DNA of 24,000 nucleotides from Christensenella sp. UBA4675 (GCA_002405165.1 DHLF01000001.1:5608-29607); one strand, 5' to 3'; shown: positions 216 to 23,308, numbered from the stretch's first letter. Program-made: numbers and translations. Notes: generated by a model from the sequence alone, not told the origin.

Positions 216-244
216 TTGACAAATAATATTTAGTCGGATATAAT
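216..244 (+). promoter_or_regulatory. sigma-A type promoter P1 for T-box leader 1
   Basis: TTGACA 216-221, exact 17-nt spacer, TATAAT 239-244, with an A-rich tract upstream. Placed just 5' of the T-box Stem I. Confidence 0.75.
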
Positions 245-249
245 AAAGA

Positions 250-521
250 CAATCTAAATAAAGACTATGACGAAGACGGCTGAAAAAAGTTATTTTCACA
301 GAGAGTCGGTAAAAGGTGAAAGCCGATAAATTGTTTTTTCTCAAAAGCCCATCGCTTCCGAGTCGGAAATCCGAAATTTTTAAAGTAGGCGTTTCCCGTT
401 ATACTGCGTAAACGTGTAGGAATTGTTTGATTCCGTGAGAGGCAACTTTTAGTTGCAATTTGAGTGGTACCGCGAGTAAATTATTACCCGTCTCAAAGAA
501 ATTTGAGGCGGCTATTTTTTT
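250..521 (+). promoter_or_regulatory. T-box riboswitch leader 1 (putative specifier AUC = Ile)
   Basis: GA/K-turn base (GACUAUGACGAAG ... CUUCCGAGUC). AGAGAG box 300-305. Distal-loop GGTGAAA 315-321. Canonical T-box sequence AATTTGAGTGGTACCGCG 457-474 with UGGU bulge 465-468. Intrinsic terminator 488-521 (CCGTCTCAAA/TTTGAGGCGG plus T7), whose 5' arm CTCAAA can instead pair with TTTGAG of the T-box to form the antiterminator. Confidence 0.9.
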
Positions 522-634
522 ACGCTTTTCGTAAATAATACGTAAAGAATTAGAAAATATTTTATAGTGAAACAGCGAAGTTGTAAACGATGAAAAATAA
601 GTTTTGACTTCTTGTAAAAAACAGGAGAAAAAAG

Positions 635-2902
635 ATGGCAGAAGTAGATTCCGAAAAGTTATTGGAAATTGGCACGAGAATTAAAGAAATGCGTGAAATT
701 TTTAACTTATCGCAACAAGACATGGCGACCAAGTGCGAAGTTTCGCTAGAAGATTATTGCGCTTATGAAAACGGAAAAAAAGATTTACCTTTTACGTTTA
801 TTCATAAATGCGCCTTAGCTTTCGGAATAGGCATTACTGACTTATTAGAAGGTAGAAGCGCGCACCTTTCGTCTTATACCGTTACGAGAAAAGGGCAAGG
901 GCAAGAAACCGCAAAAGAAAACGGAATAGAAATTCAAAACCTTGCTCCGCTTTTCCGTAAAAAACTTGCTGAACCTTATTGGGTAAGATACGAATACAGT
1001 GAAAGTTTACAAAATAAACCTATTCATTTAACCAAGCACTCGGGACAAGAATTCGACCTGGTTTTAAAGGGTAGGTTAAAAGTTCAAGTCGGCGATAACG
1101 TCGAATACTTAGACGAAGGCGACAGCATTTATTATAACAGTTCCACACCGCACGGAATGATAGCGGTAGACGGTGAAGAATGTTTATTCGTTGCTGTAGT
1201 GTTGCCAGGTGAAAACGTAGAAGAAAACGTTTTAAGGGAAACGCTTATATCCGCAAGGGGAACGGACGAAAAATTCGTATGTTCTAAATTTATAAACGCA
1301 ACAGAAGACGAAAAGGGCGTTTTAAAAGCGATTGATTTTAACAACGAAGACAAATTTAACTTTGCTTTCGATATTTTAGACGAAATAGCTAAAAAAGAAC
1401 CTGACAAAAGGGCAATGGTTTACGTCGATAAAGACAAAAACGAAAAGTTCTTTACTTTTTCGGATATGAAAAAAGAATCGGCTCGTTCGGCTAACTATTT
1501 TAAATCCTTAGGAATTAAAAAGGGTGACAGGGTAATGTTGGTTCTTAAAAGACATTATCAATTTTGGTTTGCTATTATGGGACTTTGTAAATTAGGCGCG
1601 ATAGCAATTCCCGCAACTAATCAGCTTTTATCCCATGATTTCGAATATAGATTTAACGCCGCAGGCATAAAAGCGATAGTTGCAACCGCCGACGGGGACG
1701 TAGCTCATCAAGTTGATTTAGCGGAAAAAAATTCTCCCACGTTAGAGCTTAAAATACTCGTAAACGGAACGAGAGAAGGTTGGAGAGATTTTAACAGCGA
1801 ATACACTATGTATTCCACTCATTTTTATAGAACGGAGGACACTCCTTGCGGAGATGACTCTATGCTTATGTTCTTTACCAGCGGAACTACGGGATATCCG
1901 AAAATTGCGTGCCATTCGTTTAAATATCCGTTAGGACATTATATAACGGCAAAATATTGGCACGGAGTTTCTCCCGACGGATTGCATTTCACTATTTCCG
2001 ATACGGGTTGGGGAAAAGCTTTGTGGGGAAAATTATACGGACAATGGCTTTGCGAAGGAGCGGTATTCGTTTACGATTTCGACAGATTTTCGGCTTCCGA
2101 CATACTTCCTATGTTTAAAAAGTATAACATTACTACTTTCTGCGCTCCGCCCACTATGCTTCGTATGATGATAAAAGAAGATATTTCGAAATACGACCTT
2201 TCGTCTATTAAACATATGACGACTGCGGGAGAAGCGTTAAACCCCGAAGTTTATCGTCAGTTCGAAAAGGCTACGGGACTTCAAATAATGGAAGGATTCG
2301 GGCAAACGGAAACTACGCTTTCGGTTGCAAACTTAATCGGAAATCCGCATAAAGTAGGTTCTATGGGTAAACCTGTACCGCTTTACGATATGGATATAGT
2401 AGACGAAAACGGAAATAGCGTAGCTGTCGGCGAAACGGGAGAAATCGTAATAAAAACTTCCGATAAAATTCCTTGCGGATTATTTAAAGGATACTATCGT
2501 AACGACGAAAAGACCAAAGAAGTTTGGCACGACGGATATTATCACACGGGCGATACTGCTTGGCGCGACGAAGACGGATTTTTTTGGTACGTCGGCAGAG
2601 TTGACGACGTAATCAAATCTTCGGGATACAGAATAGGGCCGTTTGAAATTGAAAGCGTTATAATGGAACTTCCGTACGTTTTGGAATGCGGAGTAAGCGC
2701 ATATCCCGACGAAGTAAGGGGACAAGTAGTTAAAGCTAGCATTGTTTTGGTAAAAGGTAAAGAAGGAACGGAGGGACTTAAAAAAGAAATTCAAGATTAC
2801 GTTAAAAAACACACCGCTCCTTACAAGTATCCCAGAATCGTAGAATTTAAAACTGAACTTCCTAAAACGATAAGCGGAAAAATTCAAAGAAACAAGTTAT
2901 AA
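635..2902 (+). CDS. HTH(XRE)-cupin-acyl-CoA synthetase fusion, paralog 1 (AMP-forming short/medium-chain fatty acid-CoA ligase)
   Basis: ATG 635 preceded by AGGAG 623-627. N-terminus is an XRE-type HTH (NLSQQDMATKCEVSLEDYCAYENGKK). A cupin barrel follows (HSGQEFDLVLKGRLKV...GDSIYYNSSTPHGMIA). From FNFAFDILD onward it is an adenylate-forming ligase with FTSGTTGYPK, YHTGD, GRVDDVIKSSGYRIGPFEIE and PKTISGKIQR motifs. Confidence 0.93.
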   Translation: MAEVDSEKLLEIGTRIKEMREIFNLSQQDMATKCEVSLEDYCAYENGKKDLPFTFIHKCALAFGIGITDLLEGRSAHLSSYTVTRKGQGQETAKENGIEIQNLAPLFRKKLAEPYWVRYEYSESLQNKPIHLTKHSGQEFDLVLKGRLKVQVGDNVEYLDEGDSIYYNSSTPHGMIAVDGEECLFVAVVLPGENVEENVLRETLISARGTDEKFVCSKFINATEDEKGVLKAIDFNNEDKFNFAFDILDEIAKKEPDKRAMVYVDKDKNEKFFTFSDMKKESARSANYFKSLGIKKGDRVMLVLKRHYQFWFAIMGLCKLGAIAIPATNQLLSHDFEYRFNAAGIKAIVATADGDVAHQVDLAEKNSPTLELKILVNGTREGWRDFNSEYTMYSTHFYRTEDTPCGDDSMLMFFTSGTTGYPKIACHSFKYPLGHYITAKYWHGVSPDGLHFTISDTGWGKALWGKLYGQWLCEGAVFVYDFDRFSASDILPMFKKYNITTFCAPPTMLRMMIKEDISKYDLSSIKHMTTAGEALNPEVYRQFEKATGLQIMEGFGQTETTLSVANLIGNPHKVGSMGKPVPLYDMDIVDENGNSVAVGETGEIVIKTSDKIPCGLFKGYYRNDEKTKEVWHDGYYHTGDTAWRDEDGFFWYVGRVDDVIKSSGYRIGPFEIESVIMELPYVLECGVSAYPDEVRGQVVKASIVLVKGKEGTEGLKKEIQDYVKKHTAPYKYPRIVEFKTELPKTISGKIQRNKL

Positions 2903-2918
2903 AAACAATTAAATATAG

Positions 2919-2947
2919 TTGACAAATTTTTTTCGTGATGATATAAT
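2919..2947 (+). promoter_or_regulatory. sigma-A type promoter P2 for T-box leader 2
   Basis: TTGACA 2919-2924, 17-nt spacer, TATAAT 2942-2947 with a TGn extended -10 (TGA 2939-2941). Lies 17 nt after the stop of paralog 1 with no terminator in between. Confidence 0.75.
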
Positions 2948-2952
2948 AGCGA

Positions 2953-3226
2953 GCAATAAAGACGATGACGAAGAGAACTTATAAACGATACTTTCCAGAG
3001 AAAAAGCGTCAGGTGAGAGCTTTAAGTTAGTTTATAAACGTTTGTAGCTTCCGAGTCGGGAGAAAGAAAGAAGAAATTCCGTAGAATCTCCCCGAAAAGC
3101 GTTGCGTTAAAACGTAGGAATTGATTGATTCCGTAAGTGGCAGTTAAACACTGCAATTTGAGTGGTACCGCGGGTAAAAATGCTCGTCTCAAAGTATCTG
3201 ACTTTGGGGCGAGCTTGTTTTTTTCT
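2953..3226 (+). promoter_or_regulatory. T-box riboswitch leader 2 (putative specifier GUA = Val)
   Basis: Same architecture as leader 1. GACGAUGACGAAG ... CUUCCGAGUC base. AGAGAA 2997-3002. GGTGAGA 3012-3018. T-box AATTTGAGTGGTACCGCG 3155-3172 with UGGU 3163-3166. Terminator 3182-3224 (GCTCGTCTCAAAGT/ACTTTGGGGCGAGC plus T-run). Confidence 0.9.
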
Positions 3227-3250
3227 CTCCCCTAAAAAACGGAGGACGAT

Positions 3251-5545
3251 ATGGAACAGATGACAGGACTTGATTTAAAAATCAAGGAAGTTGCAGGCAG
3301 AATTAAAGAACTTCGCGAAATAGAAGGTCTTTCGCAACAAGATATGGCTTTAAAAACGGACGTATCGCTAGACGAATATCAAAAATGCGAACAAGGCGAA
3401 AGTAACTTAACGTTTGCTTTTATTTACCGTTGTTCTTTAGCTTTAAAGGTAAACGTAACCGATATTATAGAAGGTTATAGTCCCGAATTAAAAGCTTTTA
3501 CGGTAACAAGAAACGGTGCGGGACAAATAGTCAGCAAAGCGCACGGAATGACTTATTACAATATGGCGTACGCATTCCGCAACCGTATTGCAGAGCCGTT
3601 ATTCGTAAAAGCCGTATATAACGACGAAGCGCAGTATAAAGATATAGAACTTACCACTCACGACGGACAAGAATTAGATATAGTTATAAACGGATATTTA
3701 ATGGTTCAAGTCGGAAGTCATAAAGAAGTATTAGGTCCGGGTGATACTATTTATTACGATAGTTCCACTCCGCACGGAATGATAGCCGTAAACGGAAAAG
3801 ATTGCGATTTCTATGCGGTAGTATTAAATCCGTCGGGAGAGCCTATTCCCGAACTTGCAAGTTCTTCTTCGAAAGAAATTAAAGACAAGAAAACGGGATT
3901 TAAGGACGAAAAAGACAGAATTTACAAAAAGTATATCGACGTAGTAGAAAACGAAAACGGTACGCCCGTTTCGATTAAATTTAAAAATACCGAAAAGTTT
4001 AATTTTGCATTCGATTTAGTAGACGCGCTTGCCGAAAGGGAACCCGAAAAACTAGCAATGTTACACGTTTCCAACAATATGACCGAAAGAAGATTTACTT
4101 TTTCGGATATGAAAAAGGAATCTGCCCGTACGGCAAACTACTTTAAATCTTTGGGAATTAAAAAAGGCGACAGAGTAATGCTTGTACTTAAAAGGCATTA
4201 TCAGTTTTGGTTTGCAATGCTTGGCTTAAATAAATTAGGCGCAATTGCAATTCCCGCAGTATATCAATTACAAGAACACGATTTTGAATATCGTTTTAAG
4301 TCTGCGGGCGTAAAAGCTATAGTATGTACGGGGGACGGAGATACCGCTCATCAAATAGATATAGCGTGTCAGAATTGTCCCGACCTTACTATTAAAATAA
4401 TGGTAAACGGAACGAGAGATGGTTGGAGAAATTTCGACGAAGAATACAAAATGTATTCCACTCATTTCGATAGAACCGAAGATACCGCTTGCGGAAACGA
4501 TACTATGCTTATGTATTTCACTAGCGGAACTAGCGGTTATCCTAAAATTGCTGTTCACAACCACAAATACCCGTTAGGGCATTTCCATACGGCAAAATAT
4601 TGGCACGCCGTTGACCCCGAAGGATTACATTTTACTATTTCCGATACGGGCTGGGCAAAAGCAATGTGGGGGAAACTATACGGACAATGGCTAGCGGAAG
4701 CTGCTACTTTCGTTTACGATTTCGATAGGTTCGATGCCGAAAAAATTATGCCTATGTTTGCAAAATATCATATCACTACTTTTTGCGCTCCTCCTACGAT
4801 GCTTCGTATGATGATTAAACAAGATTTATCCAAATACGATTTTTCTTCCGTAAAGCACATGACGACTGCGGGCGAAGCATTAAATCCCGAAGTTTATCGT
4901 CAATTCGAAAAGCTTACGGGGTTACAGATACACGAAGGTTTCGGTCAATCGGAAAGTACTATGATAATAGGAAATATGATTGGCGCCCCGCATAAAATAG
5001 GTTCAATGGGTAAACCTGCGCCTATATACGATATAGACTTATTCGACCACGACGGAAAGAGTGTTCCCGTAGGCGAAACGGGAGAAATAGTAGTAAACGT
5101 TAAAAACGGAGTTCCTTGCGGATTGTTTACGGGGTACTATAAAGACGAAGCAAAAACCAAAGAAGTTTGGCACGACGGTTACTACCACACGGGTGATACC
5201 GCTTGGCGCGACGAAGACGGTTATTATTGGTACGTAGGAAGAGTAGACGACGTTATTAAATCTTCGGGATATAGAATAGGACCGTTCGAAATAGAAAGCG
5301 TTATAATGGAACTTCCGTACGTTTTGGAATGCGGAGTAAGCGCTTGTCCCGACGAAGTTAGGGGACAAATAGTAAAAGCAAGCGTAGTTCTCGTTAAAGG
5401 CGTTGAAGGTACTGAAGAATTAAAAAAAGAAATTCAAAATTACGTTAAAGAAAAAACCGCTCCTTATAAGTATCCCAGAATAGTAGTATTTAAGGACGAG
5501 TTACCTAAAACCGTTAGCGGAAAAATAATGAGGAATAAGCTTTAA
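3251..5545 (+). CDS. HTH(XRE)-cupin-acyl-CoA synthetase fusion, paralog 2
   Basis: ATG 3251 after GGAGG 3241-3245. Same three-module layout: HTH GLSQQDMALKTDVSLDEYQKCEQGES, cupin HDGQELDIVINGYLMV...GDTIYYDSSTPHGMIA, ligase motifs FTSGTSGYPK, YHTGD, GRVDDVIKSSGYRIGPFEIE, PKTVSGKIMR. The ligase part is highly similar to paralog 1. The HTH-cupin part is much more diverged. Confidence 0.93.
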   Translation: MEQMTGLDLKIKEVAGRIKELREIEGLSQQDMALKTDVSLDEYQKCEQGESNLTFAFIYRCSLALKVNVTDIIEGYSPELKAFTVTRNGAGQIVSKAHGMTYYNMAYAFRNRIAEPLFVKAVYNDEAQYKDIELTTHDGQELDIVINGYLMVQVGSHKEVLGPGDTIYYDSSTPHGMIAVNGKDCDFYAVVLNPSGEPIPELASSSSKEIKDKKTGFKDEKDRIYKKYIDVVENENGTPVSIKFKNTEKFNFAFDLVDALAEREPEKLAMLHVSNNMTERRFTFSDMKKESARTANYFKSLGIKKGDRVMLVLKRHYQFWFAMLGLNKLGAIAIPAVYQLQEHDFEYRFKSAGVKAIVCTGDGDTAHQIDIACQNCPDLTIKIMVNGTRDGWRNFDEEYKMYSTHFDRTEDTACGNDTMLMYFTSGTSGYPKIAVHNHKYPLGHFHTAKYWHAVDPEGLHFTISDTGWAKAMWGKLYGQWLAEAATFVYDFDRFDAEKIMPMFAKYHITTFCAPPTMLRMMIKQDLSKYDFSSVKHMTTAGEALNPEVYRQFEKLTGLQIHEGFGQSESTMIIGNMIGAPHKIGSMGKPAPIYDIDLFDHDGKSVPVGETGEIVVNVKNGVPCGLFTGYYKDEAKTKEVWHDGYYHTGDTAWRDEDGYYWYVGRVDDVIKSSGYRIGPFEIESVIMELPYVLECGVSACPDEVRGQIVKASVVLVKGVEGTEELKKEIQNYVKEKTAPYKYPRIVVFKDELPKTVSGKIMRNKL

Positions 5546-6207
5546 TGAATTATAAAAGAATAACTTTACTGTGCGGTCATTACGGTAGCGGTAAAACCAA
5601 CGTAGCCGTAAATATGGCGTTCGATTTAAAAGGCAGTCACGATAAAGTCGCAGTTGCGGATTTAGATATAGTAAATCCATACTTTCGTAGTAAAGACAGT
5701 AGCGAAGATTTTAAAAAAAGAGATATAAGGCTAATCGTTTCGGATTACGCCAACACTAATTTGGATATACCCGCGCTTCCGCAAGATATGTACGCGATAA
5801 CGGACGATAAAAGTCTTAAATGTGTTTTAGATATAGGCGGGGACGATAGAGGAGCTTTGGCACTTGGCAGACTTGCCCCTAAAATCGTAGAAGAAAACGA
5901 TTACGAAATGTTTATGGTAATAAACAAGTTTAGACCATTAACGCCCGACGCTTTATCCACGCTAGAAGTTATGAGAGAAATAGAATACGCAGGCGGAATA
6001 AGATTTACGGGTTTAATAAACAATTCTAATTTAGGGAACGAAACCACTGGCGAAGAGGTAATAAAAAGTATGGAATACGCTAGGGAATTAGAAAGAATAA
6101 GCGGAGTAAAATTAAAGCTTACAACTTGTAAAGCCGACCTATACGACGATTTAAAGGATAAAATAGAAAATTTATTTCCTTTAAATTTACAAAAGAAAAT
6201 AAATTAA
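5545..6207 (+). CDS. P-loop NTPase (SIMIBI-type, MinD/CooC-like), function unknown
   Basis: ATG overlaps the upstream stop (TAATG 5543-5547). Walker A is GHYGSGKT near the N-terminus and Walker B-like is VLDIGGDD. 220 aa, with no membrane segments apparent. Confidence 0.75.
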   Translation: MNYKRITLLCGHYGSGKTNVAVNMAFDLKGSHDKVAVADLDIVNPYFRSKDSSEDFKKRDIRLIVSDYANTNLDIPALPQDMYAITDDKSLKCVLDIGGDDRGALALGRLAPKIVEENDYEMFMVINKFRPLTPDALSTLEVMREIEYAGGIRFTGLINNSNLGNETTGEEVIKSMEYARELERISGVKLKLTTCKADLYDDLKDKIENLFPLNLQKKIN

Positions 6208-6242
6208 AGGGCTTGCCCGAAAAAATAAAGGAGAAAACTTTT

Positions 6243-6449
6243 ATGGCAAAATTAACGTTTAAAACCGATAACTGTAAAGGTTGCGGTTTGTGTGTGGACG
6301 TTTGTCCGAAAGGCGTTTTAGCTTTATCTAACGATAAGATAAACAAAAAAGGACATCATCCCGTAGAAGCAGTTAATCCCGACAAATGTATAGCTTGCGC
6401 ATTTTGCGCTATTATGTGTCCCGATTGTATAATTAAAGTTGAAAGGTGA
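6243..6449 (+). CDS. 2-oxoacid:ferredoxin oxidoreductase delta subunit (2x[4Fe-4S] ferredoxin-like)
   Basis: Two CxxCxxCxxxCP motifs (CKGCGLCVDVCP, CIACAFCAIMCP). I prefer ATG 6243 (AAGGAG 6228-6233, 9-nt spacing) over the TTG 6213 used by the ORF track. TGA stop 6447-6449. Confidence 0.88.
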   Translation: MAKLTFKTDNCKGCGLCVDVCPKGVLALSNDKINKKGHHPVEAVNPDKCIACAFCAIMCPDCIIKVER

Positions 6450-6453
6450 TATT

Positions 6454-7512
6454 ATGGCAGAAAAAGTATTGATGAAAGGAAACGAAGCTATTGCCGAAGC
6501 CGCTATTAAAGCGGGGTGCAGACACTATTTCGGCTATCCTATTACGCCACAAACGGAAATTGCCGCGTATATGGCTAAAAAAATGCCAAAGATAGGCGGA
6601 ACGTTTTTACAGGCTGAAAGTGAAATTGCCGCAATCAACATGGTATACGGCGTTGCAAGTGCAGGAAAGAGAGGTATGACTTCTTCTTCAAGCCCGGGAA
6701 TTTCTCTTAAAGGAGAAGGTCTTTCTTATATGGCAGGTGCGGATTTACCTTGTTTAGTTGTAAACGTACAAAGGGGCGGTCCGGGACTTGGCGGAATTCA
6801 ACCCAGTCAGTCTGACTATTTTCAGGCAACGCGCGGTGGCGGACACGGCGATTATCATATGATAGTTTTAGCTCCTGCGTCCGTTCAAGAAATGGCGGAT
6901 TTAACCATAAAAGCGTTTGATTTAGCGGATAAATATCGTATGACCGCTATGATTCTCGCGGACGGTACTATGGGACAAATGATGGAACCCGTTTCGCTCG
7001 ATTTCGACGTTGCTCCCGCTCCCGAAAAGCCTTGGGCTACTACGGGAACTCAAATGAAAAGGGCGCATAACATAATAAATTCGTTATCGCTTGTTCCCGA
7101 AGAGTTAGAACAACTTAATATCGCAAGGTATAAAAAGTACAAGCAAATAGAAGAAAACGAAACTATGTATGAAGAATACTTAATGGACGACGCGGAAATT
7201 GCTATTTGCGCGTTCGGAATTGCCGCAAGGGTATCTAAAAACGCGATAGACGAAGCAAGGAAAAAGGGAATAAAAGTAGGTATGATAAGACCTATAACGC
7301 TTTGGCCGTTCCCGCAAGCTCCGTTTAAAAAGGCGTTAAAAACCGTTAAGCATTTTATCAGCGTAGAACTTTCTATGGGACAAATGATAGAAGACGTAAA
7401 ACTCGCAACGGAATGTAAAGTTCCCGTAACGCTTTGCAACAGAGTAGGCGGAATGATAACTACTCCCGAACAAGTTTTACAAGCAATAGAAAAGGCTTAT
7501 AAGGAGGTATAA
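6454..7512 (+). CDS. 2-oxoacid:ferredoxin oxidoreductase alpha subunit
   Basis: N-terminus MAEKVLMKGNEAIAEAAIKAGCRHYFGYPITPQTEI is the typical OFOR alpha signature. ATG 6454 with GAAAGG 6441-6446 is preferred over TTG 6439, which would overlap the delta gene. Confidence 0.9.
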   Translation: MAEKVLMKGNEAIAEAAIKAGCRHYFGYPITPQTEIAAYMAKKMPKIGGTFLQAESEIAAINMVYGVASAGKRGMTSSSSPGISLKGEGLSYMAGADLPCLVVNVQRGGPGLGGIQPSQSDYFQATRGGGHGDYHMIVLAPASVQEMADLTIKAFDLADKYRMTAMILADGTMGQMMEPVSLDFDVAPAPEKPWATTGTQMKRAHNIINSLSLVPEELEQLNIARYKKYKQIEENETMYEEYLMDDAEIAICAFGIAARVSKNAIDEARKKGIKVGMIRPITLWPFPQAPFKKALKTVKHFISVELSMGQMIEDVKLATECKVPVTLCNRVGGMITTPEQVLQAIEKAYKEV

Positions 7513-7513
7513 T

Positions 7514-8269
7514 ATGGTAGTAAAAGAAAAACCGCACGCTTTATGCGACGTTCCGTTGCATTATTGTCCCGGTTGCACGCACGGGATAATTCATAGATTA
7601 GTAGCGGAAGTAATAGACGAACTCGGAATAGAAGGGAAAACCGTAGGAATTGCCCCCGTAGGTTGTTCGGTTATGGCGTATAACTATTTTAATTGCGATA
7701 TGATAGAGGCGGCTCACGGAAGAGCTCCCGCAGTAGCGACGGGCGTAAAAAGAGCTGACCCCGACAATTTGGTAGTATTTACTTATCAAGGGGACGGAGA
7801 TTTAGCTTCTATCGGTATGGCTGAAACCGTACATGCGGCTACTAGAAACGAAAACATAACCGTAATATTTATAAACAACGCAATTTACGGAATGACGGGC
7901 GGACAAATGGCTCCCACGTCGCTTCCCGGACAAGTAACGCAAACTTCTCCTTACGGAAGAGATGTAAAATTATGCGGATATCCTATCAGAGTTTGCGAAA
8001 TGCTTTCCGAACTAGAAGGACCCGAATATTTGGCAAGAGTTACCGTTGACAACGTTAAACACGTCAACGAAGCTAAAAAAGCTATAAAGAAAGCGTTTAT
8101 GAACCAAATAGAAGGCAAAGGATTTTCTTTGGTAGAAGTTATTTCTTCTTGTCCTACTAACTGGGGTATGACGCCACAAAACGCTCTTAAATGGATAGAA
8201 GAAAAAATGATTCCTTATTATCCTTTGGGGGTATATAAAGACAGAAGCGCGGAAAAGGAGGCAAAATAA
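7514..8269 (+). CDS. 2-oxoacid:ferredoxin oxidoreductase beta subunit (TPP / Fe-S binding)
   Basis: AAGGAGG 7501-7507 precedes the start. Cys cluster HYCPGCTHG...GCS. TPP motif YQGDGDLASIGMAE...NNAIYGMTGGQ. The start is 1 nt after the alpha stop. Confidence 0.9.
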   Translation: MVVKEKPHALCDVPLHYCPGCTHGIIHRLVAEVIDELGIEGKTVGIAPVGCSVMAYNYFNCDMIEAAHGRAPAVATGVKRADPDNLVVFTYQGDGDLASIGMAETVHAATRNENITVIFINNAIYGMTGGQMAPTSLPGQVTQTSPYGRDVKLCGYPIRVCEMLSELEGPEYLARVTVDNVKHVNEAKKAIKKAFMNQIEGKGFSLVEVISSCPTNWGMTPQNALKWIEEKMIPYYPLGVYKDRSAEKEAK

Positions 8270-8802
8270 TGGCTACTACTCAATTTTTGTTTTCGGGTTT
8301 TGGCGGACAAGGTATTTTGTTTTCAGGTAAGTTTTTAGCTTATAAAGGACTTATGGAAAACAAAAACGTAAGTTGGCTTCCTTCTTACGGACCTGAAATG
8401 AGAGGCGGTACTGCTTCTTGTTCGGTTATCGTAAGCGACAGTTTAGTAGGCTCGCCTATCGTATCTAACCCCGACGTACTTATTGCAATGAATCTTCCTT
8501 CGCTCGATAAATTCGAAAAAAGCGTAAAAAGTGGCGGAATGATTTTTCTAGATTCCACTTTAATCGAAAGAAAAGTCGTTAGGGACGACGTAAAGGTGTT
8601 TTATATTCCCGCAACGGCGCTTGCCAGTGAAAACAATATGTCTACGCTTGCAAATATGATTATAATGGGAAAAGTTTTGAAAGAGCTTAACGAATTTACG
8701 GACGAATCTGTCGGCGACGCGTTAAAAAAGGTAATATCCGCAAAACACGCCGATATGATGGAAATCAACCGTAAGGCTTTGGAAATCGGAGCTAATTTAT
8801 AA
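8269..8802 (+). CDS. 2-oxoacid:ferredoxin oxidoreductase gamma subunit
   Basis: FSGFGGQGILFSGKFLA N-terminal signature of OFOR gamma subunits. The start overlaps the beta stop (TAATG 8267-8271). Confidence 0.88.
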   Translation: MATTQFLFSGFGGQGILFSGKFLAYKGLMENKNVSWLPSYGPEMRGGTASCSVIVSDSLVGSPIVSNPDVLIAMNLPSLDKFEKSVKSGGMIFLDSTLIERKVVRDDVKVFYIPATALASENNMSTLANMIIMGKVLKELNEFTDESVGDALKKVISAKHADMMEINRKALEIGANL

Positions 8803-8937
8803 AAAATATATAAGTTTTTGGTTTAAAAAATGGGTTTTACGTTAGGTATTTGCTTTTAAAGCGTGATTTGTAAAATCTTATATAAATTATAAAATCGTAA
8901 AATGTATATTTAATCAAAATAAATAAAGGAGTTTATT

Positions 8938-10002
8938 ATGGAAATTAAATTTGAAAAAACGGCTTGTCCTAAACAAAAGCCCGACCCTGCTACTTTGGGT
9001 TTTGGAAAAATATTTACCGACCATATGTTTATAATGGACTATACGCCCGATAAAGGTTGGCACGACGCAAGAATCGTTCCTTTCGGAAATATTAGTCTTC
9101 ATCCTGCGTCCACCGTTTTACATTACGGTTCTGAAATTTTCGAAGGCTTAAAGGCTTATCGTAAAAAAGACGGTACGGTTCAAATGTTCAGACCTATCGA
9201 AAACGTAAGAAGAATGAATAATTCGGCTGAAAGACTATGTTTACCCCAAATTCCCGAAGATTTAGCTATGGAAGTATTAACTAAATTCGTTGAAACCGAA
9301 AAAGATTGGACTCCCGATGCAAAGGGAACGTCTTTATATATAAGACCTTTTATGTTTGGTAACGACGAAACTTTGGGCGTACACTCTGTTAAACACGCAA
9401 CCTTTATGATAATAACTTCGCCCGTAGGCAGTTATTATAAAGAAGGTATTAACCCCGTTAAAATTATGATAGAAGATAAAGACGTAAGAGCTGTTCGTGG
9501 CGGTACGGGATATGCTAAATGCGGTGGTAACTATGCGGCTAGTAACAGAGCGGGCGAAAAAGCGGAAGAAAAAGGATATTCGCAAGTTTTATGGCTTGAC
9601 GGCGTTGAAAGAAAGTATATAGAAGAAGTCGGCGCGATGAACGTTATGTTTAAAATAAACGGAGAAATCATAACGCCTATGCTTTCTGGTTCTATTCTTC
9701 CCGGAATTACGAGAAAATCTTGCATAGAAGTATTAAAGGACGAAGGATATAAAGTAACCGAAAGACTTTTATCCGTAGACGAACTCGAAAAAGCTATTGA
9801 AGACGGAACGCTCGAAGAAGCTTGGGGATGCGGAACCGCCGCGGTAGTTTCTCCTATCGGAGAGCTTTGTTATAAAGGTAAAAAGTGCATAATCAACAAC
9901 GGAAAAATCGGAGAAGTTACTCAACATTTATATGATACTTTAACGGGTATTCAGTGGGGAGAAAAAGAGGATAAATTCGGTTGGACTTATCCTTTAAAAT
10001 AA
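8938..10002 (+). CDS. ilvE: branched-chain amino acid aminotransferase (fold-type IV PLP enzyme)
   Basis: AAAGGAG 8925-8931 then ATG 8938. Long-form BCAT features: FTDHMF, HYGSEIFEGLKAY, LYIRPFMFG, GGTGYAKCGGNYAAS, GITR, GTAAVVSP. There is no intrinsic terminator in the 135-nt spacer upstream. Confidence 0.92.
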   Translation: MEIKFEKTACPKQKPDPATLGFGKIFTDHMFIMDYTPDKGWHDARIVPFGNISLHPASTVLHYGSEIFEGLKAYRKKDGTVQMFRPIENVRRMNNSAERLCLPQIPEDLAMEVLTKFVETEKDWTPDAKGTSLYIRPFMFGNDETLGVHSVKHATFMIITSPVGSYYKEGINPVKIMIEDKDVRAVRGGTGYAKCGGNYAASNRAGEKAEEKGYSQVLWLDGVERKYIEEVGAMNVMFKINGEIITPMLSGSILPGITRKSCIEVLKDEGYKVTERLLSVDELEKAIEDGTLEEAWGCGTAAVVSPIGELCYKGKKCIINNGKIGEVTQHLYDTLTGIQWGEKEDKFGWTYPLK

Positions 10003-10030
10003 TAGATTTAATACAGATTCAGATAGTTAA

Positions 10031-10061
10031 AAAGAGCTTGGCAATTTGCCAAACTCTTTTT
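10031..10061 (+). terminator. intrinsic terminator ending the acs-OFOR-ilvE block
   Basis: Hairpin AAAGAGCTTGGC / GCCAAACTCTTT (one mismatch, 5-nt loop) running into a T tract, about 30 nt after the ilvE stop. Confidence 0.7.
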
Positions 10062-10136
10062 AGCGGTTTATGTGAAAAATTTTATAGTACTAAATTTTAG
10101 CATTATAACGCTTTTTTTACGCGTATTGGGAGAAGA

Positions 10137-15950: not shown

Positions 15951-18680
15951 ATGAAACCGGACGAAAATCAATTAAAAATAATTCAAGATACTAAAAACAA
16001 TATAATTCTTTACGCGGGAGCAGGAACGGGTAAAACTTTTACCGTAGCAAATAAAATTGCGTATTACTTACAAAATCAAATACTTAGCGCAGATAAAATT
16101 TTATGCTTAACCTTTACTGTAAAAGCCTGCAACGAGCTAATTGACGAAATAAATAATATAAGCGGTCGTCAAGACGTATTAGTAAAAACAATTCACGGTT
16201 TTTGCTATAAAATTTTAAAAGAAAAAAGTTTATCGCTAGAAGGCGTTTATAACACTCCCGATATTTGCGACGAAGTAGATTCCGAAATTATTTTACGGGA
16301 AAAATGTTTACCTTATTTAAACGAAATTGCTTTTTCAGACCATTTAAAGTCAAGGGGTGCAAAACACGATTTGCAATGGCTAAAAACTCAGGATATAGCT
16401 TACCTTAACGATAAAATGTATTTTGCCGTTAAAGATAATCAAGGATATTTTTTAATTTCTTACGACGGTAAAACTTTAAGGACTGACGAAAGTTTTAAAA
16501 ACGAAAAAAGCGGAATGATTTGTCCGCAATGTAAGGCAAGGCAAAAAAAGCAGTGTAATTTTTGCGAAGTTTGTTCTTACGATTTAAGGTTTTATATTCC
16601 GCCTTTTACTACGCATGTTAATTCACTAAGAAGTTTTGTTTCTTTTATAAAAAGATATAGAGCAATTTTAAATTATTATTCCGGAAATGATGAGATAGAT
16701 TACCAAAGAGTTTTCGATTATTTTTACAATAACGAAAGAGAAAAAATAGAAAGACTTTTATTGTATAAAGAAAAAGATTTTAATAAAAACGTAATTGATT
16801 TTTATTTTTTGTCCGCAATGCAAAAATATTGCGGAAAGTTTATAACATACTACAACGAATATTTAACGCAAAGAAATCAACTAGACTACGACGATTTAAT
16901 CGTAAAAACTTACGAGTTGTTTAGTGTGTCCGATTATAAAGATTTGCCCGAATATTCGTTAATCGTAATCGACGAAATGCAAGACACAAGCGAATTGGAA
17001 TATTCGCTTATCAGTAAATTATTTTCCGGGCAAGTTATGTTGTGCGGGGACGTAAATCAATCCATATACGGTTGGCGCGGAGCAAAGCCGATTGAAATAT
17101 TAAATAATTTTAAAGATAATTTTAACGCAACCGAATATCACTTAAATAAAAATTACAGGTCGAATAAAGCCCTGCTCGATTTTGGTGAGAAGTTTTTAAA
17201 AAACGCTTTTTCAAATAAAGACGAAACTTTATCAGTATCTTTAACAGAAGGCGAAAAGCCGATAATTAGAAAATGCGAAAATTTATCCGATGAAGCTAAA
17301 TTTATTTGCGATAAATGCGTATCTTTAAAGGGCAGTAAAGCGATACTAACGCGAACCAACTATTACGGAAAACGTTTGTACGAACGCCTTTGCGAGTTAG
17401 ACGGTAATTTAGTATTTACGTCAATAGAAGAAGAACAAAATTTACTAAAAAGCAAAATAGTAAAAGAATTTGTAAGTTTTTTAAAAATTATCTATAATCC
17501 CGACGATAAATTTAACGTAGATAAACTTTTTATAGATTTAATTCCTAACGTCGGAGAAGTTGCGATTGATAAAATAAATTTACCGCTTTTAGCTGTTGAT
17601 AGTTCCATATTTTTAAATAGTTTTATTTATGACGGGGAAGATCCGTATTCGGATTTAATTAAAGCTTTTGAAAATAAAAAAGTTGTCGTTTTCGATATAG
17701 AAAGCAGTGGGTTAGACGTAGACGAAAACGAAATAGTTCAATTATCCGCAAAGAAAACCGACGGTCAAACTTTTAATAGATTTATAAAAAATAAAAAACC
17801 TTTGGACGAGCAGTCTGTTAAAGTACACGGTTTTACGCAAGAATTTTTAAACGCAAACGGAGAAGATTTACTTACCGTTTTAAAAGATTTTTCCGTATTT
17901 ATTAAAGATTGCGTTATCGTGGGGCATAATTCGTCAAACTTCGATTTACCGGTTCTAAAAAGAGTATATAAAGAAAACGGTTTAGAATTTAATTATTTAT
18001 CGCATTATGATACTTTAAAACTTGCAAAAAAAATAATAAAAGACGTAAAGAACTATAAATTAGCTACTTTATGCGAAAGGCTTTCTATTTTAAACCTTAA
18101 AGCTCACGATGCGTTTTTTGACGTGGAAGCAACTTTAAAATTATTAGAATACATAGTTAAAATATTAAAACAAACTTCTTTTTTACGTATCGTAATTATA
18201 AATAAAAATAAAGATAAATTCTACAATTTTGCAAAGTTTTATAATAAATTGAAAAATATGGAAACCGCTAAATTCGTTTCTACGCTTACCGATTACTTAG
18301 TTGAATCTAGTTCGGTAGACGCCGTTGTTAAAAACGTAAATTTAAATAGATTAAAGCGATTTACAAAAAAATTTAATTTATCTTTGCCGTTATTAACCGC
18401 TATAAAAGAGTTTTTAGACGATAAAGACGATTATTTCGACGTTTCTAGGACGATTCCTATTTTAACTGTGCATCAGGCAAAAGGAATGGAGTTTGATAAC
18501 GTTTTCGTTGCGGGTGTAGACAACTATACTTTCCCCGACGAAGTTGAAAAATACGGCGAACAAAGAAAGGTTTTTTACGTTGCGATAAGTAGGGCAAAAT
18601 CCAAATTATTTCTTACTTTTTGCGCTAAAAACGCTTTTGGCGGGCAAAATCAGCCGTCTAATCTTTTAAAGTTATTATAG
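15951..18680 (+). CDS. UvrD/Rep/PcrA-family SF1 helicase with inserted zinc ribbon and DEDDh (DnaQ-like) 3'-5' exonuclease domain
   Basis: Helicase motifs: AGAGTGKTF (I), LCLTFTVKA (Ia), VIDEMQDTS (II), CGDVNQSIYGWRGA (III), NYRSNK (IV), TVHQAKGMEFDNVFV (V) and FYVAISRAKSKL (VI). A CPQC...CNFCEVC Zn ribbon lies between Ia and II. Between motifs IV and V there is VVFDIESSGLD (ExoI), GHNSSNFDLPVL (ExoII) and AHDAFFDVEAT (ExoIII, HxAxxD). The start is 2 nt after the HAD stop. Confidence 0.88.
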   Translation: MKPDENQLKIIQDTKNNIILYAGAGTGKTFTVANKIAYYLQNQILSADKILCLTFTVKACNELIDEINNISGRQDVLVKTIHGFCYKILKEKSLSLEGVYNTPDICDEVDSEIILREKCLPYLNEIAFSDHLKSRGAKHDLQWLKTQDIAYLNDKMYFAVKDNQGYFLISYDGKTLRTDESFKNEKSGMICPQCKARQKKQCNFCEVCSYDLRFYIPPFTTHVNSLRSFVSFIKRYRAILNYYSGNDEIDYQRVFDYFYNNEREKIERLLLYKEKDFNKNVIDFYFLSAMQKYCGKFITYYNEYLTQRNQLDYDDLIVKTYELFSVSDYKDLPEYSLIVIDEMQDTSELEYSLISKLFSGQVMLCGDVNQSIYGWRGAKPIEILNNFKDNFNATEYHLNKNYRSNKALLDFGEKFLKNAFSNKDETLSVSLTEGEKPIIRKCENLSDEAKFICDKCVSLKGSKAILTRTNYYGKRLYERLCELDGNLVFTSIEEEQNLLKSKIVKEFVSFLKIIYNPDDKFNVDKLFIDLIPNVGEVAIDKINLPLLAVDSSIFLNSFIYDGEDPYSDLIKAFENKKVVVFDIESSGLDVDENEIVQLSAKKTDGQTFNRFIKNKKPLDEQSVKVHGFTQEFLNANGEDLLTVLKDFSVFIKDCVIVGHNSSNFDLPVLKRVYKENGLEFNYLSHYDTLKLAKKIIKDVKNYKLATLCERLSILNLKAHDAFFDVEATLKLLEYIVKILKQTSFLRIVIINKNKDKFYNFAKFYNKLKNMETAKFVSTLTDYLVESSSVDAVVKNVNLNRLKRFTKKFNLSLPLLTAIKEFLDDKDDYFDVSRTIPILTVHQAKGMEFDNVFVAGVDNYTFPDEVEKYGEQRKVFYVAISRAKSKLFLTFCAKNAFGGQNQPSNLLKLL

Positions 18681-18859: not shown

Positions 18860-21800
18860 TTGAAAAGTAAAATTAAACTATTTATTATTTCAATTCTTGC
18901 GTTACTATTGGCGTTTAGTATTATCGCCTGCGACGCGGGTACGACGACTAGTTCAAAATTTAACAGTTCGTCGGTAACGTCATCAAGTTCAAGCTCTTCA
19001 AAATTGTCTTCTAGCAGTTCGTCTAGTAAGCCGTCTAGTTCTAGTAGTTCCAAACCTGCTTCCAGTTCTAGCAGTTCTGAACCTGCTTCTAGTTCTAGTA
19101 GTTCTAAACCCGATAGTTCCGATTCTTCGCAAGTACAAAACTGCACGCTTGTTTTAAGTATGGTGGGTAACGGAAATTTAACTGCAACGGCAGGTGGAAA
19201 AAACGTTTCCAGCGGGGCTAGTATAGAAAAAGGAACTTCCGTAACGATTAAGTTCTCGCCTGCCAAGGAATTTAAAACGACTAAACTTAATATCAGTGAA
19301 TTAGGTTATGTTAATACTTACGATACGACTGAAGAACAATCTTATACGTTTACGATGAGTTCTGATGCGACTGTTCAAGTTACGTTTACTCAAATAGATT
19401 ATGCTATTAGCATTTCGGGAAACACCGATTTTGGTTCGGTTACCGCCGATAAGTCTAGGGCAGTTTCGGGTGCAAGCGTAAAATTAACTATAAAACCGCA
19501 AACGAATTCCGTTTTAACTTCTTTAATAGTTGACGGAGTTGAAAAGGTTTCTAGCGTATCGTCTAACACTTTCAGCTTTACGATGCCTTCTCATAACGTA
19601 AATATTACTTATGAATTCGTTAAATATTATAATATAACGACAGGTGCGGTAAATAACGGAACGATATCTGTTAATAAAACAAGTGTGATAAAGGGAACAG
19701 AAATAACCGTAACCGCAGTTCCTGATAAGGGCTATGAATTGTTAGAAATAACTTTATCCTATAAAGTAAATGGTCAAGATAAGACACAAAACTTAGATTT
19801 GAACGGTAGTAGCATTAAATTTACAATGCCTGATAGTGATGTTGAGTTAACTGCTAGATTTACAAAACCTGATAGTAGAGAACTTGTCAACTACATGATT
19901 TTAGGCGATTCTTATACGGATACTGCGTTCTGGAAAGATTTCATTTCCGATTTCTCTTCGGTTAAAGATGCAAAAGATATAGGTATCGGCGGAACGGTAG
20001 TAACTCAATGGATAACCGGTTTAACAAGTAGTTTTGAACACAATAATGCTACTCAAGATATAAGGATTAAGGATAAATATAACGTTTCTAACTTTGTATT
20101 CCACATCGGCGTAAACGATATAGATGGTGGTACGGCAAAAGAAACGGTTGTAGCTAACTTAAAAACTTTATTTACCGATTACCATAATGCTTATCCGCAA
20201 GCACAAATTTATTGGGTATCTTTAAGTTTAAATACCATGTTTGCAAGTCAGCATACTTCTGATTATTTGTACGTTAACGCTGAAATACAAAAATATATGA
20301 ACGGAATAGACTATTTAACTTATATAGATACTTGTTCCAAAATGTTCCCCGACAATCAACCCGTTCCCGATTGGTTTGCAGACGGCTTACATTTCAATAC
20401 TGACGGATACAATACTTGGTCTGCTTTAATTCTAGACGCATTAGGATATCCCAAAGCAACCGTAGGCGATTTCGGAAAAGCGGATATTTATTATTCAAGC
20501 AATACCTTTAAGGCAAATTCTGACGGAACTATTTCTAATACAGGAAAAGTTAACGGAGAACAAAGCTTGTGGTTTAGCGAACTCTACGAACAAAACGTTT
20601 ATGCGGAAATGAACGTAAAAGTTAATAAAATTACGAATGAAGACGAATATCCTAAGTTTGGTTTAGCGTTAAAATCTAAGAATAATCACGTATTCTTCTA
20701 TATTGACGCAGGTTCTGCTTTAACCGGAAAATATGCAGGATTAACTTACAGAACGCCCGTTACCTTAAACGGTGGATTCTTAGCTTCACAATATTGGAAT
20801 TGGAGCGTTGGTATAGGTGGAAACTCCACGGCTGTTTATACCGGTGGAAATTACGTTAAATTAGGATTATTAAAAGTCGGTAGCGATTTGTATTTCTACG
20901 TAAACGACGTAATAGTAAATTCTGTTTCTAACTTAACGGGAATGGACGGAAAGTCTGCCATAGGTTTAACCGTATTCAACCTTGACGTAACTATAAAAGA
21001 TTATTCGACAACTACAAACGTTCAATCTTATATAGACGCTATAAACACTGTTGCAAGCACTAGGTTCGACGCTAACTCTGCTTATAATATTAAGGGTAAC
21101 AATATTACAAACACTACTGCGGGCGGAGAAAGTTCGGCTTGGGCTACTGGGGTAAATCACTCTAAATTCTATTTTGAAACCGAAATTACATTAAATTCGG
21201 TACTTAACAGTGATGCAGCTCCCAAAGCAGGTATAACGGTTAATCTCCAAGGCGTAGGTACGCTGTTATTCTATATAGACGCAATAAATACCGGAAGTTT
21301 CGGAACTAACGCTTGGGTTGGTTACGTTTACAGACCCTCCGGAACGACAGAATGGAATTGGGCTAAAGCTAATGCCACGTACGTTAGAGGTTTACAATAT
21401 ACAAGTAGTAAATATGCAAAACTCGGACTATACAAAAACGGTTCTAGATTTATATTTACCGTAAACGGAAACGCTGTTTTGGATACGAGTCAATTCTCGC
21501 AATTTACCGGTCAAGTAAACGTGGGCGTAATGGTATTTAACCTTGCTTATAATGCTAAAAACTGCGGTATAGTATTATCCGATAAATTATTGGATAGAAT
21601 GTTTACAACACGTAATATGGCAGATGACATAGTTGTAGACGGAAAATTAGATGATGCTAAGTGGAGTAATTATTCTTCCGATAGTATTTATTCTAGTTAT
21701 GCAACAGACGGTTCCGGCGTAGGATTTAAAGCTATGGCGTTTATGGGAACAAATGCTATCTACGTTGCTTACGAAATTACGTCTAAAACCTATGTTACTA

Positions 21801-22793: not shown

Positions 22794-22870
22794 CGGGGTG
22801 TAGCGCAGTTTGGTAGCGCACGTGGTTTGGGACCATGGGGTCGGGAGTTCGAGTCTCTTCACCCCGACCA
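22794..22870 (+). tRNA. tRNA-Pro (anticodon UGG)
   Basis: Acceptor CGGGGTG/CACCCCG, anticodon loop TTTGGGA, T-loop TTCGAGT, encoded CCA. The full cloverleaf folds by hand. Confidence 0.92.
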
Positions 22871-22893
22871 AATACATACACCTTTATATATAA

Positions 22894-22970
22894 GGGCCTT
22901 TAGCTCAGTTGGTTAGAGCGGTCGGCTCATAACCGATTGGTCCGCGGTTCGAGTCCGTGAAGGCCCACCA
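22894..22970 (+). tRNA. tRNA with CAU anticodon, probably tRNA-Ile2 (lysidine-modified) rather than elongator Met
   Basis: Acceptor GGGCCTT/AAGGCCC, anticodon loop CTCATAA, encoded CCA. It is not an initiator (no C1 mismatch, no GGG/CCC anticodon stem). The GGCTCATAACC anticodon arm and the C4-G69/C5-G68 pairs resemble Bacillus and E. coli tRNA-Ile2 from memory. Confidence 0.85.
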
Positions 22971-22998
22971 TTAAAAAACTAAATAGATTAAATTTTTT

Positions 22999-23075
22999 GG
23001 CCTGGTAGTTCAGTTGGTTAGAACGCTAGCCTGTCACGCTAGAGGTCCGGGGTTCGAATCCCCGTCAGGTCGCCA
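22999..23075 (+). tRNA. tRNA-Asp (anticodon GUC)
   Basis: Acceptor GGCCTGG/TCAGGTC (two G-U pairs), anticodon loop CTGTCAC, discriminator G, encoded CCA. Confidence 0.9.
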
Positions 23076-23105
23076 TTAAAAATTTGGGGAGATGTTAAGT
23101 CATTT

Positions 23106-23181
23106 GCCTCGGTAGCTCAGTAGGTAGAGCAGGGGACTGAAAATCCCCGTGTCGGTGGTTCGATTCCGCCCCGAGGCACCA
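23106..23181 (+). tRNA. tRNA-Phe (anticodon GAA)
   Basis: Acceptor GCCTCGG/CCGAGGC, anticodon loop CTGAAAA, T-loop TTCGATT, encoded CCA. Confidence 0.92.
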
Positions 23182-23293: not shown

Positions 23294-23308
23294 TTTTTAT
23301 TTTAATAC

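Follow-up and report, generated by a model that had tools for sequence, protein, structure and literature searches.

Isoleucine and valine T-box leaders precede paralogous acyl-CoA ligase genes in a cluster that probably makes both amino acids from branched short-chain acids

Organization of the gene cluster

The DNA analysed here is a 24,000-nucleotide (nt) window from Christensenella sp. UBA4675 (GCA_002405165.1, DHLF01000001.1:5608-29607). Its plus strand carries a gene cluster (216-10065) with two paralogous acyl-coenzyme A (acyl-CoA) ligase genes, each preceded by its own promoter and its own T-box leader. The upstream unit begins with a promoter, P1 (TTGACA-17-TATAAT, 216-244), that matches the sigma-70 consensus at 12 of 12 positions; it is followed by leader 1 (258-521) and by the gene for ligase I (635-2902; 2268 nt, 755 residues), in which Pfam models recognize HTH_19 and Cupin_2 domains and an AMP-forming acyl-CoA synthetase. 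The downstream unit begins with a second 12/12 promoter of the same make-up, P2 (TTGACA-17-TATAAT, 2919-2947), which also has a TG extended -10 element, followed by leader 2 (2956-3224) and by the gene for ligase V (3251-5545; 764 residues), a paralogue of ligase I.

Behind ligase V lie, on the same strand, genes for a small P-loop NTPase of the CbiA/ParA-like kind (5545-6207; 220 residues; Pfam CbiA), for a ferredoxin with two [4Fe-4S] clusters that resembles an oxidoreductase delta subunit (6213-6449; Pfam Fer4_7 and Fer4), for the alpha (6439-7512), beta (7514-8269) and gamma (8269-8802) subunits of a VorB-type 2-oxoacid:ferredoxin oxidoreductase (OFOR), and for an IlvE branched-chain aminotransferase (8938-10002). 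The OFOR subunits carry POR_N, PFOR_II, TPP_enzyme_C and POR domains, and the alpha subunit scores 549.6 bits with the NCBIfam VorB model, over its cutoff of 399. IlvE scores 487 bits with PRK13357 (cutoff 307) and 405 bits with TIGR01123 (cutoff 250). No terminator of note was found within the cluster between the genes downstream of ligase V, and the operon ends at a hairpin followed by a T-run (about 10031-10063; terminator-like hairpin called at 10038-10052). Ligase, VorB-type OFOR and IlvE are thus encoded together, and their order is kept in most of the related loci described below. The P-loop protein, too, is encoded between the ligase and the ferredoxin and OFOR genes in most of these loci; it gives a weak match to MrpORP, an Fe-S carrier, and may be an OFOR maturation factor.

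The two leaders are transcription-attenuating T-boxes

Both leaders are recognized by the Rfam T-box covariance model (CM), RF00230, whose gathering score is 93 bits. Leader 1 clears this score (102 bits, E = 8.6e-22, match at 258-498), and leader 2 scores 91.7 bits (E = 7.5e-21, match at 2956-3194, spanning model positions 1-219). In leader 1, we could place the K-turn and basal pairs of Stem I (264-275 with 355-363), the AG bulge AGAGA (300-304), the distal loop GGUGAAA (315-321), Stem III (442-456), the T-box sequence (457-474) with its UGGU bulge (465-468), and a terminator hairpin (488-511) with its U-run (515-521; -14.4 kcal/mol, z = -4.4). Leader 2 has its T-box sequence at 3155-3172, with the UGGU bulge at 3163-3166, and ends in a 14-bp terminator (3182-3214) with a U-run (3215-3224; -22.1 kcal/mol, z = -6.8).

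The T-box sequence AAUUUGAGUGGUACCGCG is found in both leaders, and folding gives each an antiterminator with a 7-nt bulge. The antiterminator energies are -7.3 kcal/mol for leader 1 and -10.3 kcal/mol for leader 2. Because the overlapping terminators are more stable in both cases, the default state should be termination, as in the classical mechanism. Both start codons are preceded by a good Shine-Dalgarno sequence, which argues for control at the level of transcription. The spacer between terminator 1 and the ligase I start (522-634, 114 nt) is unusually long; the same spacer measures 27 nt in leader 2 and typically 15-60 nt in related loci.

The two leaders are 74% identical overall. They have in common GCUUCCGAGUCGG (354-366 and 3047-3059), GCAAUUUGAGUGGUACCGCG (455-474 and 3153-3172) and GUAGGAAUUGNUUGAUUCCGU. 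They also share a hairpin (419-434 and 3117-3132) with a 5-bp GGAAU/AUUCC stem and a 6-nt UGNNNG loop, located between the Stem IIA/B region and Stem III, which Rfam treats as an insertion.

Related loci were collected by scanning one genome per species, which yielded at least 580 ligase relatives. We kept 80 loci, from Oscillospirales, Acutalibacteraceae or Ruminococcaceae-type genomes of gut and rumen, and searched them with a leader profile built from both window leaders. About 135 leaders were found. In a typical locus, one leader lies just upstream of a ligase gene and another just downstream of it, and the dominant architecture, T[ATC]-ligI-T[GTA]-ligV-Ploop-fdx-vorBAC-ilvE, is that of the window; about 50 related gut and rumen species keep it. 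The UGGU bulge is present in 132 of 132 leaders of the related loci, and the extra hairpin in 117 of 132, with covarying stems such as GGGCU/AGCCC and GAAGU/ACUUC. Such leaders seldom reach the RF00230 gathering score: only 2 of the 15 in seven related loci do so, while the leucine T-boxes that adjoin the operon in the same seven loci score 107-123 bits.

One difference between the two leaders of the window that might have seemed meaningful, the greater stability of terminator 2, was not retained as a design feature: over 53 paired loci the mean difference is -1.5 kcal/mol (Wilcoxon p = 0.12).

Position and identity of the specifiers

Alignment to the CM places the specifiers at AUC (Ile), 351-353, in leader 1 and at GUA (Val), 3044-3046, in leader 2. 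The contexts are CCC-AUC-G-CUUC and UUU-GUA-G-CUUC, respectively, so that each triplet is followed by one base (G354, G3047) and then by the helix strand CUUC (355-358, 3048-3051). The region of the specifier loop is 276-281 with 346-354 in leader 1 and 2974-2978 with 3040-3047 in leader 2. The CM fits this loop poorly, and leader 1 required a 5-nt insertion in it. The register of the specifier was checked separately on 42 diverse orthologous Stem I sequences.

In this set, the K-turn stem (columns 9-10 with 111-112) and the helix directly 3' of the triplet (columns 17-20 with 104-107) are each paired in 100% of cases, with compensatory changes in 5 of their 6 pairs; the latter helix occurs, for instance, as GAAG/CUUC, GGAG/CUCC, GAAA/UUUC, GAGG/CCUC and GGGG/CCCC. 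On its other side, the specifier loop sits beneath a covarying helix of 3-4 bp (columns 23-26 with 95-98). RNAalifold, run unguided on the 42 sequences, finds both of the helices that bracket the loop. The K-turn UGA and GA bases are invariant, the AGAGA bulge and GGUG distal loop are invariant or nearly so, and in the distal helix (columns 54-58 with 71-75) pairing reaches 96.7%, with covariation at 5 of 5 pairs. Over the whole proposed Stem I structure, 94% of the cells pair, a share that drops to 25-53% if the 3' partner strands are displaced by 1 to 3 columns, and 14 of 15 pairs show compensatory changes, that is, changes on both sides. With the flanking helices fixed in this manner, the 3' strand of the loop comes to exactly five bases, namely the triplet with a pyrimidine before it and a variable base after it.

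The triplet itself is conserved. Leaders of the upstream type carry ATC in 69 of 69 cases, in the 80 species; those of the downstream type (n = 60) carry GTA in 52 cases and the synonymous GTC in 8, and the change to GTC occurs in several distinct loop contexts. The assignment of AUC to isoleucine and GUA to valine is therefore strongly supported by comparative sequence analysis. The bulge is consistent with it. tRNA-Ile and tRNA-Val carry A73, and tRNA-Cys has U73; the UGGU present in all 132 leaders predicts an A73 tRNA, and thus fits Ile and Val and not Cys.

These results bear out most of what the preliminary description had proposed for the leaders. Both elements are T-boxes and lie where it had located them. 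The specifier calls stand at the positions it gave, as does the UGGU bulge of both leaders with the A73 tRNA that it implies. The two other placements that it had considered do not: CUC at 340-342 is not conserved, and CCC at 348-350 is made up of the 3' strand of the covarying helix and one loop base. Two statements of detail hold in part. The strings it listed as common are all found in both leaders, except that CGUAGG with its initial C occurs in leader 2 alone, leader 1 having UGUAGG; and the triplets do lie in the contexts that it described, but the leaders, being 74% identical, differ at many other positions as well.

The specifier class follows the ligase clade

We then compared the leaders with the ligases encoded behind them. 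Average-linkage clustering of the full-length ligases on p-distances gave two clusters that match the specifier exactly, 66 ligases lying behind ATC and 48 behind GTA or GTC. The leaders themselves are also distinct by class: with the specifier masked, the average distance to leaders of other genomes was smaller within the class than across classes for 128 of 129. Clustering of whole leaders by the unweighted pair group method with arithmetic mean gave no split by class, owing to outliers.

The sole exception in the masked test, at position 2735 of locus L057 (L numbers designate individual related loci), has an Ile-type body and the loop context GGCCC-NUC-C and carries GUC. In the specifier, the two leaders of this locus (58-328, AUC; 2736-3006, GUC) differ by one base, and the GUC leader precedes a ligase of the Val clade. 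It looks like a natural specifier switch, and selection appears to keep the Val codon whatever the rest of the leader. A second leader of another kind is found in L055 (12325-12573; 73 bits), with a UGGU bulge and the specifier GCA (Ala), one base away from GUA. It lies directly before the P-loop and OFOR genes, in a locus without ligase V; this single case could be either a decaying switch or a change of specificity.

In many related genomes, a third T-box with a CUC (Leu) specifier stands beside the operon (L053:5518-9626; L056:5251-9464, minus strand; L004:19388-19624; L007:19367-19604; L016:9791-10027). It is followed by a gene for a short LeuA-like protein (HMGL-like and LeuA_dimer domains, about 460 residues) and, in L053 and L056, next by a gene for a fusion of about 820 residues between a xylose-isomerase-like TIM barrel and an AMP-binding enzyme. 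A third ligase paralogue serving leucine was considered here and rejected: the matches that resembled ligase V are only 23-26% identical to it and correspond to the fusion of the TIM barrel with the AMP-binding enzyme. The unit made of the Leu T-box, the LeuA-like gene and the fusion gene is not present in the window, where the end of the open reading frame upstream of the cluster is unrelated.

Two related ligases with a predicted split of substrates

Ligases I and V are 67% identical overall and 76% identical in their catalytic part. The closest solved structure is that of MacsMa from Methanosarcina acetivorans (3ETC, E = 2e-187), an enzyme that prefers 2-methylbutyrate and forms acyl-adenylates with a range of C3-C8 acids and with some branched acids (PMC10455477). 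The best NCBIfam model is MbcS (NF047394), with 440 and 443.5 bits. In both ligases, the position of the pocket tryptophan of Acs (Trp414/416) is occupied by glycine (EGFGQ[TS]E), as in MacsMa, and the alternative tryptophan of MacsMa (AKYW) is retained.

Six alignment positions strictly separate the two clades, five of them in the HTH and cupin domains and one in the catalytic part. The latter, directly after the tryptophan of a DTGW motif, is Gly460 in ligase I (codon 2012-2014) and Ala469 in ligase V (codon 4655-4657). It aligns with Val310 of Salmonella enterica Acs, which we take to be an acyl-pocket residue, and is glycine in MacsMa. From the specifiers and the enzyme family, ligase I is predicted to be a 2-methylbutyrate-CoA ligase and ligase V an isobutyrate-CoA ligase; the smaller residue, Gly460, in the enzyme for the larger acid would fit this split.

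Both ligases start with a module of about 230 residues (635-1339 and 3251-3979) that combines HTH_19, a helix-turn-helix (HTH) domain, with Cupin_2. The clade-specific residues of this module are, in ligase I, K58, E95, I98, I100 and Y115, and the module may sense a clade-specific ligand. Its only match to a solved structure is to a 65-residue HTH domain of the PbsX family. An operator for the HTH domain was looked for in aligned promoter regions, 58 of the Ile type and 46 of the Val type, and no conserved palindrome was found.

Promoters and read-through between the two units

Both promoters are conserved. A P1-type promoter matching the consensus at 10 or more of 12 positions lies upstream of 62 of 67 Ile-type leaders, and a P2-type promoter of the same quality occupies the corresponding site in 52 of 59 Val-type leaders; in control windows such a match was found 7 times in 700. 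The aligned promoter regions show promoter features only, and these are found in both classes: an A-rich tract upstream, TTGACA, and TGTGnTATAAT. In the window, the ligase I stop codon (2902) is separated from the -35 hexamer of P2 (2919) by 16 nt, which leaves no room for a terminator. The median distance is 37 nt in related loci, and in only 1 of 53 of them does the stretch from ligase I to leader 2 hold a terminator-like hairpin, which overlaps the promoter.

Since no terminator separates the units, transcripts that start at P1 should reach leader 2, and the terminator of leader 2 should end them if valine is sufficient. Since P2 is a conserved consensus promoter, the downstream block should be an independent, Val-gated unit. 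On the strength of these promoter sequences, the need for both uncharged tRNA-Ile and uncharged tRNA-Val is limited to the extra transcripts that start at P1, and the output of the shared enzymes may be written approximately as (P1*r_Ile + P2)*r_Val, where r is the read-through fraction at each leader. This would amount to a Val gate with an Ile-dependent boost, and a strict AND gate is not supported: not all output transcription passes through both switches, because P2 lies between them.

The preliminary description had put forward the absence of a terminator between the ligase I stop and P2, which we find confirmed here and in 52 of the 53 related loci, and the passage of P1 transcripts into a leader 2 that doubles as their terminator, which should then hold as well. 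Its notion of a two-tRNA logic gate is correct for transcripts derived from P1 but does not extend to the downstream genes as a whole, which, given P2, are essentially Val-gated. It had also pointed out that isoleucine limitation alone would yield ligase I without the OFOR. This puzzle is real, but it is not an anomaly. In Bacillus subtilis, the ilv-leu operon places enzymes shared by three amino acids under the T-box of a single one. Among the related loci, an Ile T-box alone drives ligase and OFOR genes in L070, L076, L051, L042 and L047, and ligase I, ligase V and OFOR genes in L015. Basal read-through from a consensus promoter and the additive contribution of P1 would soften the puzzle further.

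Proposed mechanism and alternatives

We consider it probable that, taken as a whole, the locus uses Ile and Val T-boxes to drive a starvation-induced synthesis of isoleucine and valine from branched short-chain acids of exogenous origin. The locus would comprise two neighbouring, paralogous transcription units, and in each of them a T-box that attenuates transcription would let an uncharged tRNA switch expression on. Unit 1 would consist of P1, the Ile T-box (AUC) and ligase I, and unit 2 of P2, the Val T-box (GUA), ligase V, the P-loop protein, the ferredoxin, the VorB-type OFOR and IlvE. Uncharged tRNA-Ile or tRNA-Val would pair with the specifier, and the free ACCA end of the tRNA would pair with UGGU and stabilize the antiterminator, so that RNA polymerase reads through. 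Ligase I would then convert 2-methylbutyrate, and ligase V isobutyrate, to the acyl-CoAs; the OFOR would reductively carboxylate these to the 2-oxoacids, and IlvE would transaminate the latter to isoleucine and valine. Leader 2 would, in addition, end the ligase I mRNA when valine is sufficient and let polymerase pass when valine is short. We read the pathway in the direction of synthesis because it would be induced by uncharged tRNA, that is, by starvation, and because the ligases belong to an AMP-forming family.

A number of observations weigh against this account. Leader 2 falls 1.3 bits under the RF00230 gathering score. The specifier loop is a non-canonical internal loop of 2 x 5 nt without the AGUA/GAA S-turn, and the base 3' of ATC, described as a conserved purine in T-boxes (PMC7583486), is C in about 31 of the 69 Ile-type leaders. 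The A73 match draws on general knowledge of tRNAs, because neither the window nor the 80 related loci contains a gene for tRNA-Ile or tRNA-Val (or, for that matter, tRNA-Leu). The scores of the ligases with the MbcS model are far under its equivalog cutoff of 850 bits, which makes them relatives of MbcS and not equivalogs; for this reason, and because only one residue of the catalytic domain strictly discriminates between the clades, the substrate split is a prediction. Finally, isoleucine limitation alone would not induce the OFOR and IlvE through their own switch.

The specifiers could, in principle, be misassigned, the true triplet being shifted by one base, to UCN (Ser) on the downstream side in leader 1 and to UGU (Cys) on the upstream side in leader 2, or lying at the CUC or CCC further upstream. 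The loop without canonical S-turn spacing, the 5-nt CM insertion in leader 1, and a base after AUC that varies between A, C and G much as a wobble position would are all in keeping with such a shift. We nevertheless find it barely conceivable, given that the helix 3' of the loop is held in register by complete pairing with compensatory changes, that ATC is invariant in 69 leaders and GTA is exchanged only for its synonym GTC, and that the TAG frame would be a stop codon. UGGU suits A73 tRNAs and not tRNA-Cys, which has U73; as for the upstream candidates, CUC belongs to a variable stretch, and CCC comprises the 3' helix strand and one loop base; and the operon itself carries enzymes for isoleucine and valine. 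As for the wiring, a strict AND gate would require that most transcription of the ligase V, OFOR and IlvE genes come from P1 with both tRNAs uncharged, P2 being weak or silent. The two switches do stand in series on one strand, and both the window and 52 of 53 related loci lack a terminator between ligase I and leader 2. Such a gate is very unlikely all the same, since P2 matches the consensus at 12 of 12 positions, has a TG extended -10 element and, like P1, an A-rich upstream tract, and recurs at its position in 52 of 59 species (controls, 7 of 700), and since a cell starved for valine and replete with isoleucine could not induce its valine pathway.

The remaining doubts concern the enzymes. 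Both ligases might take the same broad set of branched acids, the duplication merely providing separate regulatory inputs that adjust dosage to isoleucine and valine. The maintenance of two separate clades in about 50 species, each with a specifier of its own, makes this unlikely, as does the location of Gly460/Ala469 at what we take to be the acyl-pocket position (Acs Val310), where MacsMa has glycine; in favour of a shared substrate set are the 76% identity of the catalytic domains, with a single position that strictly separates them, the fact that S. aureus MbcS reportedly accepts more than one branched acid, and the breadth of MacsMa, which accepts a range of C3-C8 acids and some branched ones (PMC10455477). 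More radically, the cluster might not serve amino acid synthesis at all, and either break isoleucine and valine down to branched acids or supply branched acyl-CoA primers for membrane fatty acids, the T-boxes being incidental. Both OFORs and IlvE can run in either direction, VOR is known chiefly for its oxidative reaction, and MbcS of Staphylococcus aureus is reported to support branched-chain fatty acid synthesis (PMC10026030). Yet T-boxes activate when the cognate amino acid is scarce, which is the wrong signal for degradation; AMP-forming ligases drive the conversion of acid to acyl-CoA and not the reverse; and primer supply needs neither an aminotransferase nor an oxidoreductase. The surroundings of the operon, moreover, suit biosynthesis, since in many relatives a LeuA-like gene with a Leu T-box stands next to it. 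We therefore hold a function other than synthesis to be highly improbable, and retain the proposal that the cluster makes isoleucine and valine from branched acids.

Comparison with known systems

The leaders have the hallmarks of canonical transcriptional T-boxes (RF00230; for instance those of B. subtilis tyrS and the Leu T-box of ilv-leu): K-turn, AG bulge, GGUG distal loop, Stem II with a GAAA...AGUA S-turn, Stem III, UGGN bulge, and a terminator that competes with the antiterminator. As in ilv-leu, genes for the supply of branched-chain amino acids are controlled through the tRNA of one amino acid. They differ from the canonical elements in that a compact specifier loop of 2 x 5 nt under a short covarying helix replaces the S-turn loop, in that Ile-type leaders often have C directly after the codon, in the extra conserved 5-bp hairpin before Stem III, and in that many score below the Rfam gathering threshold, which the non-canonical loop probably explains for most of them. 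The genes regulated are also different, namely acyl-CoA ligases and an OFOR instead of ilv/leu enzymes or a tRNA synthetase.

The closest parallel to leader 2 is the operon-internal T-box of the Bacillus gltX-(T-box)-cysE-cysS operon (PMC4342826). There as here, a T-box downstream of a gene receives transcripts from an upstream promoter and makes the distal genes respond to another amino acid. In the present locus, however, a T-box of the other specificity also precedes the upstream gene, a conserved consensus promoter lies directly before the internal T-box, and the two units are paralogous to each other. The locus is not a tandem T-box either, even though more than one T-box acts on one transcript in both arrangements. 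In examples of the tandem kind, the copies share one 5' untranslated region and usually one specifier; here, a 2.3-kb gene (635-2902) and the promoter P2 lie between the two elements, whose specifiers (Ile, Val) differ.

Like MacsMa (3ETC) and S. aureus MbcS, the ligases have the fold of AMP-forming enzymes and belong with the short branched-chain acyl-CoA synthetases, and they share with MacsMa the glycine at the Acs Trp414/416 position and the alternative tryptophan (KYW). Unlike both, they carry the N-terminal HTH_19 and Cupin_2 module and fall into two clades, and their scores stay under the equivalog cutoff of the MbcS model.

The pathway as a whole has a physiological precedent. Rumen anaerobes, reportedly in the work of Allison, Bryant and Robinson in the 1960s, reductively carboxylate isobutyrate, 2-methylbutyrate and isovalerate to valine, isoleucine and leucine. 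An acid-CoA ligase, a 2-oxoacid:ferredoxin oxidoreductase and an aminotransferase are exactly what such a route needs, and the hosts of the related loci are likewise Ruminococcaceae and Oscillospirales from gut and rumen; the classical work differs in being physiological. That Ruminococcaceae of the rumen and gut need or assimilate isobutyrate, 2-methylbutyrate and isovalerate has been known since that decade, but gene-level assignments are thin. A literature search in an incomplete library turned up no paper that ties T-boxes to acyl-CoA ligase or VOR genes, and none that assigns these genes to branched-acid assimilation. It is an established approach to annotate genes from the specifier of the T-box before them (Wels et al. 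2008, PMC2494555), and that study mentions neither 'CoA' nor 'ferredoxin'. The RNA class is thus a known one that governs an apparently undescribed but widespread regulon, and most of its leaders, being below the Rfam gathering score, are missed by standard annotation.

The RNA mechanism itself is textbook, and the interest of the locus lies in its context, in which a regulatory RNA reports both the direction of a pathway and which paralogue serves which amino acid. A more tentative proposal, which we regard as a serious possibility though short of likely, is that the specifiers label the substrates of the two related ligases, one Ile-gated and acting on 2-methylbutyrate, the other Val-gated and acting on isobutyrate, which would both feed one ferredoxin-dependent carboxylating OFOR, with the HTH-cupin module as a second layer of control. 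This module could add regulation specific for an amino acid or an oxoacid, through either enzyme feedback or transcriptional autoregulation. The locus also provides a natural example of a duplicated cassette of promoter, T-box and gene that changes specificity through its specifier, the GUC on an Ile-type body in L057 being a case in point. If the account is true, it would supply the long-missing genetic basis for the requirement and assimilation of branched-chain fatty acids in ruminococci and their gut relatives, and the pathway would be present in hundreds of species. The locus makes the use of branched-chain acids by ruminococci directly testable, with two enzymes, three substrates and one residue swap.

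Other features of the window

Downstream of the cluster, the window encodes a UvrD/Rep-type helicase of 909 residues (15951-18680) with a DEDDh exonuclease domain (RNase_T, residues 579-732) that falls within the span of its UvrD_C match (residues 396-892). It is followed by a protein of 1104 residues (18860-22174) that combines InlB B-repeat-like repeats (Flg_new_2) with a GDSL lipase/acylhydrolase domain, and by six tRNA genes (22794-23393): Pro-TGG, Met-CAT, Asp-GTC, Phe-GAA, Thr-TGT and Tyr-GTA.

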